DNA of 50,561 bases from Patescibacteria group bacterium (GCA_038245255.1 JBBRSQ010000003.1:1-50561), one strand, 5' to 3'. Numbered from the stretch's first letter, positions 1-49,057 are shown. A program made the numbers and translations. The notes: generated by a model not told the origin, from the sequence alone.

Positions 1-163
1 AAATTAAACCAATTGTAAGTAGTATAAATCCTATTGGTATTAATCCAAAGGGTTCAATAAGTGTGCCGTCAGCAGATATTTTTGATCCGATTGCGGCATA
101 AGAAAGAAAACAAATAACCCCAAGGGCGAATGAAGTTAAGGAGAAATAGTAAATTTTTTTCAT
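1..163 (-). CDS. Small membrane protein, DUF3955-like; 3' end runs off the window
   Basis: Hand translation from ATG at 163 (alternative ATG at 169): MKKIYYFSLTSFALGVICFLSYAAIGSKISADGTLIEPFGLIPIGFILLTIGLI...; two TM segments around a GS-x4-G-x-L-x-EPF-x-LIP motif. Not in the ORF track. Confidence 0.65.
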   Translation of the reverse strand, partial: MKKIYYFSLTSFALGVICFLSYAAIGSKISADGTLIEPFGLIPIGFILLTIGLI

Positions 164-268
164 ATTCATTATTAGCTTATTAATCTATACTTACTATATT
201 ACACCACCCCGGTATGATAAACTACCCGTACTCGACGATTTTAAAATCCTTATGTTACAATTTAAATT

Positions 269-517
269 ATGAAATTAACAAATGAAAGCTACATAATATC
301 AATCGGCACTAAAAATTTCACTGAAAAATATTTTCGTGACCAGGACGCTTGGGTTAAGGTTTCCGCAAAAGGTACTAAATTTCGGATGACAGCTGAACAA
401 GTTCTTAATCATCTATTGCCCGTAATATCTGGTATAAAACCAAATCTCACCCTGGAAGTTAAATATAAAGAAAAAATAGTTTCAAAAAGAAAAAAAGTAA
501 ACAAAAAAAGTCCATAA
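269..517 (+). CDS. Hypothetical protein (82 aa)
   Basis: ORF track; ends in a terminator hairpin; no motif recognised. Confidence 0.6.
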   Translation: MKLTNESYIISIGTKNFTEKYFRDQDAWVKVSAKGTKFRMTAEQVLNHLLPVISGIKPNLTLEVKYKEKIVSKRKKVNKKSP

Positions 518-531
518 ATAAAGGACTTTTT
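505..531. terminator. Bidirectional intrinsic terminator
   Basis: AAAAAGTCC-N9-GGACTTTTT between convergent ORFs. Confidence 0.6.
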
Positions 532-532
532 C

Positions 533-700
533 TTACAAAAAAGAATCAACTAAAATTTCCTGTTTATTTTTTTCTAAGTCCTCGCTGTTATCACTAAAAA
601 TAATTACTTGGCTATTTTCTTTTTTTAAAAATGTGGCTAGTGAGAGGCCGAATCCTTTGCTGCCGCCAGTAATTACTACGACTTTATTATTTAAATCCAT
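533..700 (-). pseudogene. Truncated short-chain dehydrogenase/reductase (N-terminal 55 aa only)
   Basis: Hand translation MDLNNKVVVITGGSKGFGLSLATFLKKENSQVIIFSDNSEDLEKNKQEILVDSFL*; TGxxxGxG Rossmann motif present, catalytic YxxxK region absent. Confidence 0.75.
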
Positions 701-709
701 ACTATTTTA

Positions 710-1207
710 TTAATTTATTAATGACTCTCTAAGAAAAAGACTGTCTCTAATTTGAATAAAGCCACCCTCATATCCCTCTGGCGCATCACCCTCTAATAAT
801 TTAATGGCTTCGTCTAGGGACACCCACTTTATCTCAAAACCATTACTAATTTCCTCTTTAGTAAAATCTGGCGATCCTTTTTCGCCAACTACATTAGCCA
901 CATAACAATACGAATTCTGTTTCAATGACCACTTATCTCTATATTCAATGATTTCTCCTAATTCACGGACTACCTCAACATTACAACCAATTTCTTCCAA
1001 ACATTCTCTTTTAAGAGCTTCTTCAATATTTTCGTCGCCTTCTAAGCCTCCGCCTGGTAATTTATGGTAGTTCAATTTGCTAACAAAAAGAATTCCAATG
1101 TTTTTATCTTTATCAAAAACAACTGCCCTGGCCGCTCTACGAATTTGAAATTTACTAATTTCCTCATCTGTAAAATTATTAGCCTGTATTATTTTAATGA
1201 TTTTCAT
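710..1207 (-). CDS. NUDIX hydrolase
   Basis: Nudix box GGLEGDENIEEALKRECLEEIG. Confidence 0.9.
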   Translation of the reverse strand: MKIIKIIQANNFTDEEISKFQIRRAARAVVFDKDKNIGILFVSKLNYHKLPGGGLEGDENIEEALKRECLEEIGCNVEVVRELGEIIEYRDKWSLKQNSYCYVANVVGEKGSPDFTKEEISNGFEIKWVSLDEAIKLLEGDAPEGYEGGFIQIRDSLFLRESLIN

Positions 1208-1355
1208 ATAATATGATTATATTACAAATATTCTAAATTAGTAAATACAAACTTATTAAGGATAAAATTAATTTTTCTCTAAAACAAAAATGACTCTAAT
1301 ATTAGGCTGGCCATAAAAAAATTGCTTACGAACCACTTTCTCCCCTTATATAACA

Positions 1356-1385
1356 GAAAAAACGAGCTTTTAAACTCGTCTTTTC
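1356..1385 (-). terminator. Intrinsic terminator downstream of the displaced tRNA-His 3' end
   Basis: Minus strand GAAAAGACGAG-N8-CTCGTTTTTTC, immediately after the CCA-bearing duplicate at 1390-1407. Confidence 0.6.
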
Positions 1386-1391
1386 CAAATG

Positions 1392-1619
1392 GGGTGCCTA
1401 AAGGGAAAGCGCGCTCGCTTTCTTATCAGAAAGCTCACTTGTCCAGACCGGCCGCTAAGCGCTACGCTCGCTCGCGCTTATCGTCGCTCGTCTAATAGTC
1501 GTCGCTACACGCTCCTCCTATTGTCTCGCTCGCCGCTTGTCCGATTCCCTGGCTGTTCCAGCCATAATAAAAACATCCCAAAATTTGGGATGTTTTTATT
1601 ATAGGGTGCCTAAAGGGAA
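1392..1619 (-). mobile_element. 212-bp non-autonomous element inserted in the tRNA-His 3' end (att-like 16-bp direct repeats)
   Basis: GGGTGCCTAAAGGGAA at 1392-1407 and 1604-1619; GC-rich interior; 19-bp perfect inverted repeat 1564-1602; inverted T-arm copy 1539-1550. Confidence 0.65.
1564..1602. terminator. Long perfect hairpin / terminator directly after tRNA-His
   Basis: ATAATAAAAACATCCCAAA-A-TTTGGGATGTTTTTATTAT (19-bp inverted repeat). Confidence 0.75.
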
Positions 1620-1676
1620 TCGGACCCTTGATAACAGGACCACAACCTGCTGTGTTACCATTACACCATAGGCACC
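1605..1676 (-). tRNA. tRNA-His(GTG)
   Basis: Cloverleaf with G-1:C73; anticodon arm GCAGG-TTGTGGT-CCTGT; T-loop TCCGATT; CCA not encoded (CTA). Confidence 0.95.
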
Positions 1677-1699
1677 ATAAATTTGTTTTTTGTAAAACG

Positions 1700-1771
1700 T
1701 ACGCCCGGGGGGAGTCGAACCCTCGTCTAAAGCTTAGAAGGCTTCCGTTCTATCCGCTGAACTACGGGCGC
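1700..1771 (-). tRNA. tRNA-Arg(TCT)
   Basis: Acceptor GCGCCCG/CGGGCGT; anticodon arm GAAGC-CTTCTAA-GCTTT; GTTCGA T-loop. Confidence 0.95.
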
Positions 1772-1800
1772 AAAAAGTGAATTTATTTAATTCTTGTCTT

Positions 1801-1829
1801 ATATTAATAGAAATAAGCTGTCTTGTCAA
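1801..1829 (-). promoter_or_regulatory. Sigma70-type promoter for tRNA-Arg/tRNA-His
   Basis: TTGACA-17 bp-TAATAT on the minus strand, about 30 nt upstream of tRNA-Arg. Confidence 0.6.
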
Positions 1830-1858
1830 ATATTACTTGTTCCTTATATTCTTTAGTC

Positions 1859-2644
1859 TTACTCTCCTCTTTGGCGTCTTGCCTCATAAATAAGTAAGGC
1901 GGCCGAGACAGAAACATTAAGGGAGTCAATTCCCTTTTCCATGGGTATCTTAACTAATTTATCAGCTTTTTTTAACCATTTTTCACTTAATCCATTAGCC
2001 TCTGATCCTAAGACTACGGCCAAAGGGCCATCCATTTTCTCCTTTGTGTAGCTATTTTTAACTCCAGTCGCCGCCGCATAGCTCAAAATTTTATTATCCG
2101 ATAACCATTTTAATGTTTCCTCAGTTGTCGTAATCACAATCGTTTTGTTAAATACAAAACCCTCACTTGCGCGAATAACATTTGGGTTATAAATATCTGT
2201 TTGACCGTCATTAATAATTATCAAATCTACTCCGGCCGCATAAGCGGTTCTAATAATTGCGCCAAGATTACCTGGCTTTTCAACTGCTTCTAAAACAACG
2301 ATTAATGGATTTTTTGATAATTTTATGTTTTTCAACTTTTGTTTTTCAACTTTCGCAACGGCCAAATAACCACCCGGACTATCCTTATAACATATTTTAT
2401 TAAATACTGATTCTGAAACCTCGGTAATAATGTCTGTTTTTAAACCAAAAAAAGTGTTGGCTGGTTTTTTTATTAAATTAGGGCAATAATACAACTCTAA
2501 AATCTCTATTCCCGCCTTTTTTGCTAATTCAATTTCACGTGTACCATCAATAATAATAAGCCCCTTTTTCTTTCTTTCTCCAGACTTTTTCAAATTCACC
2601 AAGTCTTTTATTTTTTGATTATTTGTGCTAGTTATTATATTCAT
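1859..2644 (-). CDS. TrmH/SpoU family RNA 2'-O-methyltransferase
   Basis: Motifs LEAVEKPGNLGAIIRTA, VLGSEANGLS, IPM..IDSLNVSVSA; start placed at MNIITS (ORF track starts at 2665). Confidence 0.92.
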   Translation of the reverse strand: MNIITSTNNQKIKDLVNLKKSGERKKKGLIIIDGTREIELAKKAGIEILELYYCPNLIKKPANTFFGLKTDIITEVSESVFNKICYKDSPGGYLAVAKVEKQKLKNIKLSKNPLIVVLEAVEKPGNLGAIIRTAYAAGVDLIIINDGQTDIYNPNVIRASEGFVFNKTIVITTTEETLKWLSDNKILSYAAATGVKNSYTKEKMDGPLAVVLGSEANGLSEKWLKKADKLVKIPMEKGIDSLNVSVSAALLIYEARRQRGE

Positions 2645-2752
2645 AGTATTTACATTATAAATCAATTAATTTCAAATACCTAGGCTGTATTTTATCTAAT
2701 TCTAAAAAGTTCAAATTTCTGCTATAATAAGCTTATCTTAATAATATATTTT

Positions 2753-5593
2753 ATGCCAATTCCACAATTACATACACACAAAACTGTCGCCTGGAGAGAC
2801 GCCAGCGCTAAAAATAGTTCAAAAAAGAACCATAAAAAAAGCTTTAAGCATCGTTTGCTTATGATTGCCTTGAGTCTTTTTGGGCTTGGAGTTGTTTCTT
2901 TATTAATATTATTTGCTTGGCTATCTTATGATTTACCTAATCCTAACCAATTAATTAATCGCGAAGTAGCTCAAAGTACTAAAATATACGACCGCACCGG
3001 AGAAAACGTTCTTTACGAAATTAGTGGTGACGAGCGGCGCACCCTTGTTCCCTTAACTGAAATCCCTGACTACGTAAAACAGGCAACGATTGCAATTGAA
3101 GATAAAAACTTTTATAAGCATGGTGGCTTTAGTGTTTGGGCAATGGCCCGAACTGCCATTACTAATGTTTTATATAGTCGCAGCGCCGGTGGATCGACTT
3201 TAACTCAGCAATTTATAAAAAATGCTGTTTTATCTAATGAAAAAACTTTAACCAGAAAAGCTAAAGAATTAATAATGTCATATCAACTAGAAAAAAGGTT
3301 TTCAAAGAACGAAATTCTACAAATGTATTTAAACGAAATCCCTTACGGCTCTAATGCTTATGGCGTTGAAGCCGCTAGTCAAAAATATTTTGGTAAAAGT
3401 GTTCGCGATCTAAGTTTAGCTGAGTCCGCTATTTTAGCTGCTCTGCCGCAATCACCGAGCCGTTATTCACCTTATGGAGCTAATAAAGATTTACTTCTGG
3501 GGCGTAAAGATTACATTTTAAATTTAATGACTGAACAGGGATATATAACAAAAACCGAGGCAGAAACTGCTAAAGCTCAAGAAATTGTTTTTAAAGGAAG
3601 AGACAATAATATTACCGCTCCCCATTTTGTAATGTACATAAAAGATATACTCTCGGAAAAATATGGAGAAAAAATGATTGAACAGGAAGGCTTAAAAATA
3701 TATACGACTCTTGATTTATATAAACAAAAAATTGCCGAAGAGGTTATTACTGAAAAAACCAAGGATTACCCTACTAAATATGGCGCTAATAATGCTGCGC
3801 TCGTTTCAATTGATCCTAAAACCGGACAGATATTAGCCATGGTTGGCTCCCGTGATTATTTTGATGATTCAATAGATGGCCAAGTTAATGTTACAACTCG
3901 CCCGCGCCAACCAGGATCTTCTATAAAACCAATTGTTTATGCCTCTTTATTTGAAAAAGGATATACGCCAGACACAATCTTATATGATGTTGTAACTAAT
4001 TTTTCAACAAATTCTAGTGATCCATATATTCCCCATGACTACGATCTTCATGAACGTGGCCCAGTTTCAATTCGAAAAGCTTTAGCTGGTTCATTAAATA
4101 TTCCGGCTGTTAAAGCAATTTACTTAGCTGGTATTAATAACGTTATTGATTTAGCCGAAAATCTTGGCTATACAACTTTTGCTGACCGTAGTCGTTTTGG
4201 TTTATCGTTAGTTTTAGGTGGCGGCGAAGTTAAATTACTTGAACACGTTAATGCTTTCAGTGCCTTCGCTCGCGATGGTCAGCTCAGTCCAATTGTTAGT
4301 ATTTTAAAAGTTGAAGATAAGAATGGTAAAATCATTGAAGAATATAAACCGACCGAGAAAAAGGTTTTAGATTCACAAATAGTACGAATGATTAATAGTA
4401 TTTTAAGTGATAACGCCGCTCGAACTTATGTGTTCGGCGCTAAAAATAATCTTACACTGAGTGATCGTCCCGTAGCTGCAAAAACGGGAACGACCAATGA
4501 TTACTATGATGCTTGGACAATTGGCTACACTCCGTCCCTAGTTACTGGCGTCTGGGTTGGCAATAGTAATAATGACCAAATGAAAGGTAAGCCTGATGGT
4601 AGTGTTGTCGCCGCACCAATTTGGCATGATTATATGAATAAAGTTTTAGCGGGAACACCAGTTGAAAACTTTAAGGAGCCCGATGATTACAAGACCGGGA
4701 AACCGATTCTAGACGGTCAAATTCCGACGCAACTCGTAAAGGTGGATGTGAGTTCAAATACTTTAGCCACGGACGCTACGCCGCCAGAATTTATCGAAGA
4801 AAAAAACGTGACACTTCATCATAATATTTTATTTTATGTTGACCGCAGCGATCCACGGGGTCCCTCTCCTAAAGATCCAACCAGTGACCCTCAATATTTA
4901 CTTTGGGAAGTGCCGGTCCAAAAATGGGCGACCAAAAATGCTAGCTCTTCAGACTTTGTTTTGCCAGAAAATTATAATGAACTTCATAAGCCAGAAAATA
5001 AGCCGACCCTTGAGGTGATTTCGCCATCAAACAACGAAACAATCAACGTCGCGAGTCTTGAGGTTAAAATTAAAACCTCATCACCACGTGGCGTTAAACG
5101 TATTAATTATTATATTAATAACAACCTGTGGCACACAAAAACAGGAAATCTAGATGCTTTAGTAATCCCTCTTAATAATCTCGGTAATGGTTATCAAAAT
5201 CTAAAAGTCCAAGCTTGTGATGATATTGGAAATTGTAGTGATGAAACAGTAAACTTCAATTTATTAATTAAAGATAATCCAGTTTCAATTTCTAAAAATA
5301 GTATATCTTTAATTTCGCCAAGTTCGAGTTTGGCTCTTAATTTAATCGACTTCCCCTTGCCGATAGTTTTCCAAGTCGCCAATCCCGTAAGACTTTCTCA
5401 ACTAAATTTGGTTTTACGAGATGCTGAAGGAAAAATAACAGTCCCAAATATAATTAAATCTTTTTCCTCAAATCCTATAAATATTTCCTTAGAGTCGGCC
5501 CCAAAATCAGGTGTTTATTCTATTTTCGGAGAACTACATGATTTAAATGGCGATATTATAAAAAGTAATGAAATAATACTAACGGTTAAATAA
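2753..5593 (+). CDS. Class A bifunctional penicillin-binding protein (PBP1A family) with C-terminal Ig-like extension
   Basis: N-terminal TM; GT51 motifs EDKNFYKHGG and GGSTLTQQ; transpeptidase motifs SSIK, SLN and KTGT; extended -10 TGCTATAAT at 2720-2728. Confidence 0.95.
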   Translation: MPIPQLHTHKTVAWRDASAKNSSKKNHKKSFKHRLLMIALSLFGLGVVSLLILFAWLSYDLPNPNQLINREVAQSTKIYDRTGENVLYEISGDERRTLVPLTEIPDYVKQATIAIEDKNFYKHGGFSVWAMARTAITNVLYSRSAGGSTLTQQFIKNAVLSNEKTLTRKAKELIMSYQLEKRFSKNEILQMYLNEIPYGSNAYGVEAASQKYFGKSVRDLSLAESAILAALPQSPSRYSPYGANKDLLLGRKDYILNLMTEQGYITKTEAETAKAQEIVFKGRDNNITAPHFVMYIKDILSEKYGEKMIEQEGLKIYTTLDLYKQKIAEEVITEKTKDYPTKYGANNAALVSIDPKTGQILAMVGSRDYFDDSIDGQVNVTTRPRQPGSSIKPIVYASLFEKGYTPDTILYDVVTNFSTNSSDPYIPHDYDLHERGPVSIRKALAGSLNIPAVKAIYLAGINNVIDLAENLGYTTFADRSRFGLSLVLGGGEVKLLEHVNAFSAFARDGQLSPIVSILKVEDKNGKIIEEYKPTEKKVLDSQIVRMINSILSDNAARTYVFGAKNNLTLSDRPVAAKTGTTNDYYDAWTIGYTPSLVTGVWVGNSNNDQMKGKPDGSVVAAPIWHDYMNKVLAGTPVENFKEPDDYKTGKPILDGQIPTQLVKVDVSSNTLATDATPPEFIEEKNVTLHHNILFYVDRSDPRGPSPKDPTSDPQYLLWEVPVQKWATKNASSSDFVLPENYNELHKPENKPTLEVISPSNNETINVASLEVKIKTSSPRGVKRINYYINNNLWHTKTGNLDALVIPLNNLGNGYQNLKVQACDDIGNCSDETVNFNLLIKDNPVSISKNSISLISPSSSLALNLIDFPLPIVFQVANPVRLSQLNLVLRDAEGKITVPNIIKSFSSNPINISLESAPKSGVYSIFGELHDLNGDIIKSNEIILTVK

Positions 5594-30902: not shown

Positions 30903-30913
30903 TGGTTTATTAG

Positions 30914-30986
30914 TGGACTTGAGGGGACTCGGACCCCTTACCTCTGCAATGCGAATGCAGCGCTCTACCAGATGAGCTACAAGCCC
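30914..30986 (-). tRNA. tRNA-Ala(CGC)
   Basis: G3-U70; anticodon arm CTGCA-TTCGCAT-TGCAG; T-loop TCCGAGT. Confidence 0.93.
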
Positions 30987-48977: not shown

Positions 48978-48985
48978 ATTTATAG

Positions 48986-49057
48986 AGCGAGTAAGGGGAA
49001 TCGGACCCCTCTCATAAGGTTGGAAACCTTAGGTAATAACCACTATACGATACTCGC
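48986..49057 (-). tRNA. tRNA-Gly(TCC)
   Basis: Acceptor GCGAGTA/TACTCGC plus U73; anticodon arm TAAGG-TTTCCAA-CCTTA; T-loop TCCGATT. Confidence 0.94.

Follow-up and report, generated by a model that had tools for sequence, protein, structure and literature searches.

How does a tRNA gene come by a second 3' end, and what is the DNA that separates it from the first? The window considered here, the whole 50,561-nucleotide stretch of DNA from a Patescibacteria group bacterium whose assembly (G000 among those compared) is of 0.82 Mb, 36% GC and 93.7% completeness, raises the question close to its start. There a tRNA-Arg/tRNA-His operon is followed by a hairpin, an inverted piece of T-arm, a G/A-rich stretch and then, once more, the end of tRNA-His (Table 1). 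The direct repeat is of 16 identical nt (19 nt at 95%), its two copies lie 212 nt apart and the working gene ends C73-C74-T-A, with CCA present after the distal copy only (1390-1392). Neither the 16-mer of the direct repeat nor the 12-mer of the inverted one occurs in 100 dinucleotide shuffles of the window. All of the parts that the sequence-only reading had described (tRNA-His, hairpin, inverted T-arm, core, second 3' end and terminator) are present in the places claimed for them. The answer reached below is that the 212-bp insert belongs to a numerous family of small tRNA-linked elements that fold and have no genes.

Table 1. Features of the tRNA-Arg/tRNA-His locus, in tRNA sense; positions are counted from the first letter of the window
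Feature	Position	Strand	Basis or detail
Sigma-70-like promoter of the tRNA-Arg/tRNA-His operon	1801..1829	-	TTGACA, 17 nt, TAATAT
tRNA-Arg(tct), upstream gene of the operon	1699..1771	-	ARAGORN, Rfam
tRNA-His(gtg), complete; T-loop TCCGATT (C55); CCA not encoded	1604..1675	-	ARAGORN; Rfam tRNA, 60.3 bits
DR1, proximal 16-nt repeat (tRNA positions 59-74), within the working tRNA	1604..1619	-	repeat search, shuffles
T1, perfect 19-bp hairpin with A and T runs on its flanks	1564..1602 (arms 1564-1582 and 1584-1602)	.	repeat search
Spacer of 13 nt with a 5-bp mini-hairpin, peculiar to the subfamily of the tRNA-His copy	1551..1563	-	sequence, copy comparison
IR, exact reverse complement of tRNA positions 53-64 (12/12 against 1614-1625)	1539..1550	-	repeat search, shuffles
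G/A-rich conserved core, about 130 nt: helices Pa, P2, P3 and P4 with GA/GA internal loops between	1408..1538	-	alignment, fold
DR2, distal copy of tRNA positions 59-74 (1392-1407), continuing into C75-A76	1390..1407	-	contiguous with original flank
T2, hairpin and T-run, original tRNA-His terminator	about 1357..1380	-	same sequence in the empty alleles of 6 sister species
IR-core-DR2 unit, full match to R1 (model positions 1-169, 145.4 bits)	1389..1553	-	covariance model

Two halves of the inverted segment (IR) need to be distinguished. The closing helix P1 is made by the 5' half (1545-1550) together with the 6 nt at which DR2 begins (1402-1407), and the 3' half is complementary to T-loop positions 53-58. 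T1 has the shape of a two-way terminator and belongs to the inserted cassette; related T1 modules accompany the element at other loci. The unit proper, of the type that in E. coli goes by the name of tRNA-linked repeat (TLR), begins 50 nt past tRNA-His and on the same strand.

Which of the two ends is the original one? Parsing of 30 tRNA-Arg/His loci of the genus found six to be occupied (those of G000, G069, G004, G011, G020 and G015), and a seventh occupied tRNA-His locus, in G029, lies outside that count. In six empty alleles (G071, G002, G009, G014, G081 and G033) tRNA-His with CCA is followed at once by the T2 sequence. Since T2 directly follows tRNA-His there, DR2 and T2 are, to judge by the alleles compared, the original gene end, and 212 bp have been added. 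The claim that these 212 bp are an integrated element is in this respect borne out, as they are an insertion relative to the empty alleles of sister species. Recombination between the repeats with precise loss would leave the same empty form, so that for any single event either polarity would serve. In G011 the distal copy retains an older version of the T-stem than does the working tRNA, and it looks like a fossil of the displaced end.

Does the insert encode anything? The description ‘ORF-less’ is not literally correct, for mechanical translation gives ORFs of 57 and 71 aa on the plus strand over the element, but it holds in substance: because the indels between copies have lengths that three does not divide, the coding reading of the 71-aa ORF was discarded and we read the element, on this comparison of sequences, as probably non-coding. 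A search for promoter-like sites inside 1380-1600 found none. An Rfam scan of window positions 1-5000 at E<=1 returned nothing beyond the two tRNAs, and a known RNA family for 1370-1610 was sought at E<=10 with only chance hairpin matches to show for it.

The locus is far from solitary. In its own genome nhmmer finds 4 strong copies and 1 weak one. Copies of the core follow tRNA-Glu(ttc), tRNA-Ala(tgc) and a tRNA-Ser(tga) 3' fragment, with more diverged ones at tRNA-Glu(ctc), tRNA-Ser(gct) and a tRNA-Gln-like fragment; R1, a covariance model built from 30 copies with a structure drawn by hand, has 7 matches there. When the 40 ARAGORN rows of this genome, minus one tRNA cut by a contig edge, were scanned directly, six had a copy of their own 3' end of at least 15 nt downstream and four an inverted T-arm copy of at least 11 nt. 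The same genome has tRNA-end duplications to which R1 has no match (C7:12348-12544, C11:2072-2170, C5:3100-3250 and C1:56340-56480). In these, tRNA-Leu(taa) is followed by a GC-rich 135-nt insert with a 53-nt repeat extending beyond the tRNA end, tRNA-Val(tac) by an 80-nt mini version with a 16-nt repeat, tRNA-Gln(ctg) by an AT-rich insert of 134 nt, again with a 16-nt repeat, and tRNA-Leu(cag) by a GC-rich island.

Among relatives, here sampled genomes of the order and of the phylum, BLAST with the core matched 17 of 36 genomes of the same genus and 0 of 24 genomes of other families. R1 reaches further: 43 of 151 genomes of the order are positive (18 of 82 genera, with up to 14 copies per genome), as are 3 of 150 other genomes sampled across the phylum, and the R1 matches listed are all full length with E-values from 1e-15 to 1e-42. 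The family thus amounts to more than 200 copies in 46 genomes at a constant size of about 200 bp. Tandem copies, for which a search had been advised, are common, the period being 199 in G004 and 208 in a four-unit array of G152, and in G033 two different elements stand in series behind one tRNA-Glu. A literature search, which was not exhaustive, surfaced no report of such elements outside enterobacteria.

These numbers bear on one way to account for a gene-less insert between duplicated tRNA ends, namely that a large tyrosine-integrase island once resided here, that its attL and attR were fused by internal deletion and that the core was once its arm-type binding DNA. Integrases that target tRNA genes usually have for their att core a repeat of 16-18 nt from the T-loop to the tRNA 3' end, which the 16-nt repeat resembles, and elsewhere in the genome an IS3-family element and other genes do lie between tRNA-Ser(tga) and its 3' fragment. 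An origin as the fused ends of a deleted prophage or island is nevertheless disfavoured, because the elements keep to one size, have a structured and conserved core and number more than 200; what is conserved, moreover, is base pairing with a strand bias. No integrase lies in or beside the element at the loci inspected, and the only tyrosine recombinase of the genome is on another contig. We consider a relic of this sort exceedingly improbable. The tRNA-Ser(tga) locus itself (C9:6191-8800, L038) has an IS3-family element with ORFs of 117 and 223 aa together with a 311-aa lipoprotein-like ORF, and its 3' fragment precedes another copy of the element.

The layout shared by the copies is tRNA, hairpin terminator, spacer of 6-15 nt, IR, core, DR and second terminator. 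Thirty-eight distinct copies sit 43-61 nt past an identified tRNA, behind a hairpin terminator, and the hosts are Gln, Glu(ttc), Glu(ctc), Ala(cgc), Ala(tgc), Leu(caa), His, Ser(gct), Ser(tga), Gly(gcc), Gly(tcc), Val, Trp, Arg(tct) and Tyr. The search advised for the architecture at other tRNAs and in other genomes is answered by its recurrence behind at least 15 tRNA species. Comparison of the distal repeat with the host tRNA, position by position, gives an identity of 0-5% at 54-57, 86-97% at 58-74 and about 50% beyond 74, and the repeat is perfect over 59-74 in 27 of the 38 copies. From this profile it follows that the repeat spans from just after A58 to the end of the gene-encoded tRNA.

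Some features of the tRNA genes are worth recording in their own right. Those of the genome to which the window belongs mostly end in the discriminator and one C before A/T-rich sequence, with a CCA end in 3 of the 40 rows only. Eight of the 40 have C and not T at T-loop 55 (TCCGA), which is the nearly universal pseudouridine-55 site; in the window these are tRNA-His (1604-1675), tRNA-Ala(cgc) (30913-30986) and tRNA-Gly(tcc) (48985-49057). There are also solo copies, and five of them, L021 (G010), L024 (G018), L084 (G132), L083 (G152) and L097 (G096), apparently occupy one orthologous non-tRNA locus beside a conserved gene end. On their left side there is no more than the final 5-6 nt of the tail of a tRNA-Glu or tRNA-Ala, and the distal repeat at this locus is of Glu type in one species and of Ala type in another.

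The inverted segment also follows its host. Where the host loop is TCCG (five hosts: His in three genomes, Trp and Gly(tcc)) the IR always has CGGA to match, and where it is TTCA (two hosts) the IR has TGAA in both cases. Among the remaining hosts one of 33 deviates, its IR having opposite U55 a G, with which pairing in RNA would still be possible; these loci are mutually related and so are not independent events, the counts drawing on three element subfamilies and three tRNA types. Both IR and DR track the host tRNA, and the anticipated co-variation of the inverted segment with each host, C55 included, is what was found. How would a segment that is read backwards be kept in step with the tRNA? 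Its derivation by fold-back at the T1 palindrome was considered and, as a simple explanation, set aside, for no mirror of tRNA 65-74 is to be seen in the 11-13 nt that separate T1 from IR.

The copies also share a fold. RNAalifold with 30 copies recovered two helices, with compensatory changes in 18 of 20 pairs. When 61 distinct copies were aligned to R1, an alignment fitted to the model and hence favourable to it, with the slid controls on the same alignment, paired cells came to 88.1%, against 64.8% for column shuffles and 34-42% when partners were slid by 1-3 columns. Changes on both sides are seen in 42 of 46 pairs, and none of 500 shuffles attained any of the structure measures. The core and the closing helix together make five helices. 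P1, in which IR joins the leading 6-10 nt of DR2, is paired to 78%, and 6 of its 10 pairs covary; the acceptor 3' strand stays as a free tail. Which strand is folded is also clear: outside P1 there are 77 G·U against 20 A·C, despite a composition that favours A·C, and because of this excess the folded strand is shown to be the tRNA-sense one. That strand is more stable than its complement in 29 of 30 copies, and the GA/GA internal loops between helices exist on it alone. Single-sequence folding is in itself too weak a guide (z of -1.64 for sense and +1.28 for antisense). Conservation in the element is thus one of base pairs rather than of sequence, and is strand-biased. A 20-nt GC-rich palindrome occurs at the same core position in L012, L028 (G013) and L036 (G020), and also elsewhere nearby; it resembles a second, nested miniature palindromic repeat.

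The inverted copy had been envisaged as a partner for an att core. The geometry would suit that, but a simpler first role for it is the covariation-supported closing helix with the distal copy of the tRNA end, as in RtT/TLR. P1 nevertheless leaves unexplained the complementarity of IR to T-loop positions 53-57, which are absent from DR2. The tracking of these positions may be due to selection for pairing with the tRNA or its gene, or possibly to template-switch correction between inverted arms that are 50-60 nt apart. If it were the former, an RNA acting in trans might be at work, with the free 3' half of IR and P1 pairing with 12-15 nt of the host T-arm, or with a spare 59-76 end presented beside a splint over 58|59, and regulation, repair or the decoy of tRNA-directed enzymes or toxins can be imagined as the purpose. 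That IR tracks T-loop positions missing from DR2 speaks for such an anti-tRNA or tRNA mimic. So does the unpaired acceptor tail of DR2, which is as host-identical as its paired part (86-94% at 66-74, species-specific variants included). Against it, the covariation could equally stem from template-switch correction of the inverted arms or from recent copying, and the loop part of IR is not inviolate: there are one or two mismatches in three Glu copies and in the Ala(tgc) subfamily, and two fixed ones in the E. coli Tyr, Pro and Ser copies. We regard a trans-acting RNA of this kind as very unlikely.

While the ends keep to their hosts, the cores do not. In a tree of 59 cores from which the IR and DR columns had been removed, the seven tRNA-His copies are spread over six places or more. 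The tRNA-His core of the window is grouped (support 98/98) with three tRNA-Ser and three solo copies, being 89-93% identical to the tRNA-Ser-linked copies as against 77% to the tRNA-His copy of G020, and yet the 3' junction and flank of the same element match those of the tRNA-His copy of G011. We read this comparison as pointing to a resident tRNA-His element whose core was probably overwritten from another copy; true retargeting is a possible alternative.

That the element is mobile DNA, as the sequence-only reading proposed, is one possibility. It is conceivable that a non-autonomous element integrates as a folded single strand at 58|59 by means of a host recombinase, such as the single Xer-like enzyme; the P1 stem would rebuild a duplex identical to tRNA gene positions 59-65, and one strand exchange followed by replication would fix the insertion in the manner of CTXphi attP and integron attC. 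Much is in keeping with this. The boundaries are sharp (57/58|59 on the left, 74|75 on the right) with IR spanning the junction (6+6 nt at tRNA-His), the proximal copy is without CCA and the distal one keeps CCA and the original flank, there are empty alleles and tandem arrays, including two different elements in series, and a given lineage of cores does not keep to one host tRNA. With each cassette comes a terminator by which the operon is repaired, as befits a selfish element, and G·T wobble and GA/GA loops are tolerated in folded DNA also.

An enzyme for the purpose is harder to point to. The expected co-occurring recombinase or HUH protein did not materialize: in the genome of the window there is one match to tyrosine recombinases (PF00589), at C13:14431-14967 in a protein of 324 aa and so not on the contig of the element, and no match to serine recombinases, Y1 HUH proteins or IS110-type proteins (PF01548, 0 matches). 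A conserved Xer-like tyrosine recombinase is present in 147 of 151 genomes of the order and so is not specific to those with the element, and it is the only tyrosine recombinase in 19 of the 43 positive genomes, some with 10-14 copies. No integrase was found inside or beside the element at the loci inspected. Circle junctions were looked for in all contigs of four sequencing runs and none was seen, nor was a tandem junction or an empty allele in the contigs of runs X1 (the best), X2 and X3; contigs of X1 end within the element. In X19, an RNA-library run, there is a 161-nt contig (depth 4.6) in which 1385 is linked to 1604 across 6 other letters; we read it as the empty site of a relative and not as excision.

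There is a further difficulty. Insertion of an element carrying the 3' end of one tRNA would wreck a different tRNA, and because of this a folded single strand does not on its own explain retargeting to at least 15 tRNA species. The E. coli look-alikes, besides, are known as transcripts. Recombinase-mediated integration of a folded strand strikes us as unlikely, even though the boundaries agree with it exactly. As for a retroelement, which a repeat starting after A58 brings to mind (an RT stop or an 18-nt primer site), the idea was dropped as the distal repeat continues unbroken into the original flank. The genome has a single RT-like match (26.5 bits, below cut-off), and this is the RT of a diversity-generating retroelement on C64 (L069 1-1738). 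That retroelement comprises the end of a target gene with its variable repeat, an Avd-like ORF of 124 aa, a template repeat rich in adenine at about 890-1050 and a reverse transcriptase gene that runs off the contig.

The reading that we hold, with modest confidence, to be probable is a less adventurous one, and is drawn by analogy: the insert would be a TLR/RtT-type cassette lodged between tRNA-His and the original terminator, giving a little RNA by T1 read-through that is trimmed at its tRNA end, and spreading as a passenger. The cassette consists of its own terminator T1, the spacer and a unit of about 165 nt that folds on the tRNA-sense strand, with P1 (IR and the 5' part of DR2) closing the unit and the acceptor 3' strand left over as a single-stranded tRNA-like 3' tail. 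By the precedent of rtT and rrA/B/F, the unit would be made as RNA when transcription from the tRNA promoter reads through T1, and the tRNA 3'-end machinery would then trim this RNA at the duplicated tRNA end, leaving a clamped, stable RNA. Expression, if any, would be low, because in the copies inspected a strong terminator stands ahead of the core and no internal promoter-like site was found. Related cores do appear in one RNA-library run, a metatranscriptome, as contigs of depth 2-7 that may be DNA. Copies would persist as near-neutral or selfish passengers of tRNA operons, and would probably spread through the homology at 59-74, by tandem duplication, recombination and exchange of cores, with no enzyme of their own. 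It has to be conceded that the analogy carries little mechanism, because the function of the E. coli TLRs is itself unknown.

A bolder reading is also conceivable. One could suppose that TLR-type elements at large are target-matched insertion elements, in which IR pairs with the sense strand at 53-64 and DR with the antisense strand at 59-74, the two sharing a core of 6-7 nt, so that the folded strand is inserted at 58|59 by host enzymes and retargeting comes about by re-copying both guides from a new host. We rate this as decidedly unlikely. Were it true, such elements would be the counterpart, with no recombinase of their own (or with a borrowed Xer), of guide-programmed recombination, and a puzzle open since 1978 would have its explanation. 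Whatever its fate, what could have passed for a curiosity of a single species has become a comparative dataset, with more than 200 copies behind 15 or more species of tRNA, alleles both empty and occupied, tandem arrays and a covarying fold, in which the two end segments keep to the tRNA of the host and the cores are exchanged from host to host. Whether these are RNAs processed by the tRNA machinery or single-stranded mobile DNA, and how the match to each tRNA arises, are questions made directly testable by it.

It remains to place the element among systems already familiar. CTXphi attP(+) and integron attC are recombination sites folded from a single strand, in which a stem of two inverted segments of one strand mimics a duplex target, as P1 here may do, and exchange of a single strand would yield just the arrangement observed; in the present case no link to a recombinase was found, and the target is the T-arm of a tRNA and not dif or attI. 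Cis-mobilizable or miniature integrative elements (CIMEs) and island remnants are gene-less deletion derivatives of integrase elements, with tRNA-end repeats and no conserved fold. They too present gene-less DNA between duplicated tRNA 3' ends, but here the interior has a fold that is conserved and covaries, and no parent element came to light. Of what characterizes a tyrosine-integrase att site, the direct repeat of the tRNA 3' end and the empty alleles are seen, whereas an integrase of its own, or one dedicated to it, is not.

The nearer relatives in design are enterobacterial. The account in PMC8144298 has 22 TLR copies at 10 loci in E. coli, the last 18-19 bp of each being the 3' end of the upstream tRNA or rRNA, and says of these repeats, known since 1978, that they ‘have no known function’. 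The same source describes rrA, rrB and rrF, which are TLRs between the dual terminators T1 and T2 of rRNA operons, made by T1 read-through and processed, and mentions reported binding of their RNAs by Hfq and CsrA; rttR is treated in PMC3318445 and bioRxiv 10.1101/2024.07.17.603846. Like rrA/rrB/rrF, with their 18-bp copy, our unit lies between T1 and T2 and ends in a copy of the 3' end of the upstream stable RNA, the host there being 5S rRNA. By the characteristics given in PMC8144298 after Rudd 1999 the element is of TLR type: it is downstream of a tRNA, has 16 identical nt at its 3' end and is found at several loci of its genome.

In E. coli K-12 the family RF00391 (RtT) has 18 matches, 13 of them above the gathering threshold (45 bits). 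The tyrT locus, with its 178-bp repeats and rtT RNA, has four units, and RtT units end in the last 18-19 nt of the tRNA. Their inverted T-arm is matched to its own host at Tyr, Pro, Ser and Lys, and at Arg the duplicated 3' end matches; pairing of IR with DR closes the unit, and several stand behind a terminator. Searched in the other direction, RF00391 has no match at E<=10 to the tRNA-His element or to its genome, and nhmmer with a profile of the family (A2) finds nothing in the tyrT locus. R1 does rank the four tyrT units as the top 4 of that locus (E 0.003-0.012), and does so through P1 and the tail only. The gathering threshold of RF00391 is thus not reached by the element, whereas the RtT layout of closing helix and free acceptor tail is present: as far as sequence comparison can tell, the element has TLR architecture without detectable sequence homology, and is not an RF00391 member.

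The differences are readily listed. The unit in the Patescibacteria order is of about 165 nt where that of E. coli is of 130, has five helices and is without the sense copy of the 5' half of the T-arm that E. coli units carry. Its repeat stops at C74, and so is shorter than that of E. coli, since the host genes lack CCA. Those copies that were inspected carry a terminator of their own, and the unit is present in far greater numbers and in a distant phylum. The likenesses are as follows. In both, the unit is directly behind a tRNA and in the same orientation, its 3' 16-19 nt are the tRNA end from 58/59, a 5' inverted T-arm closes it around a G/A-rich interior with hairpins, and it recurs at several tRNAs with host-matched ends, in tandem arrays and often behind a terminator. 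An inverted T-arm, a structured core and a copy of the tRNA end are thus a recurring design, met again in a distant order of bacteria with small genomes.
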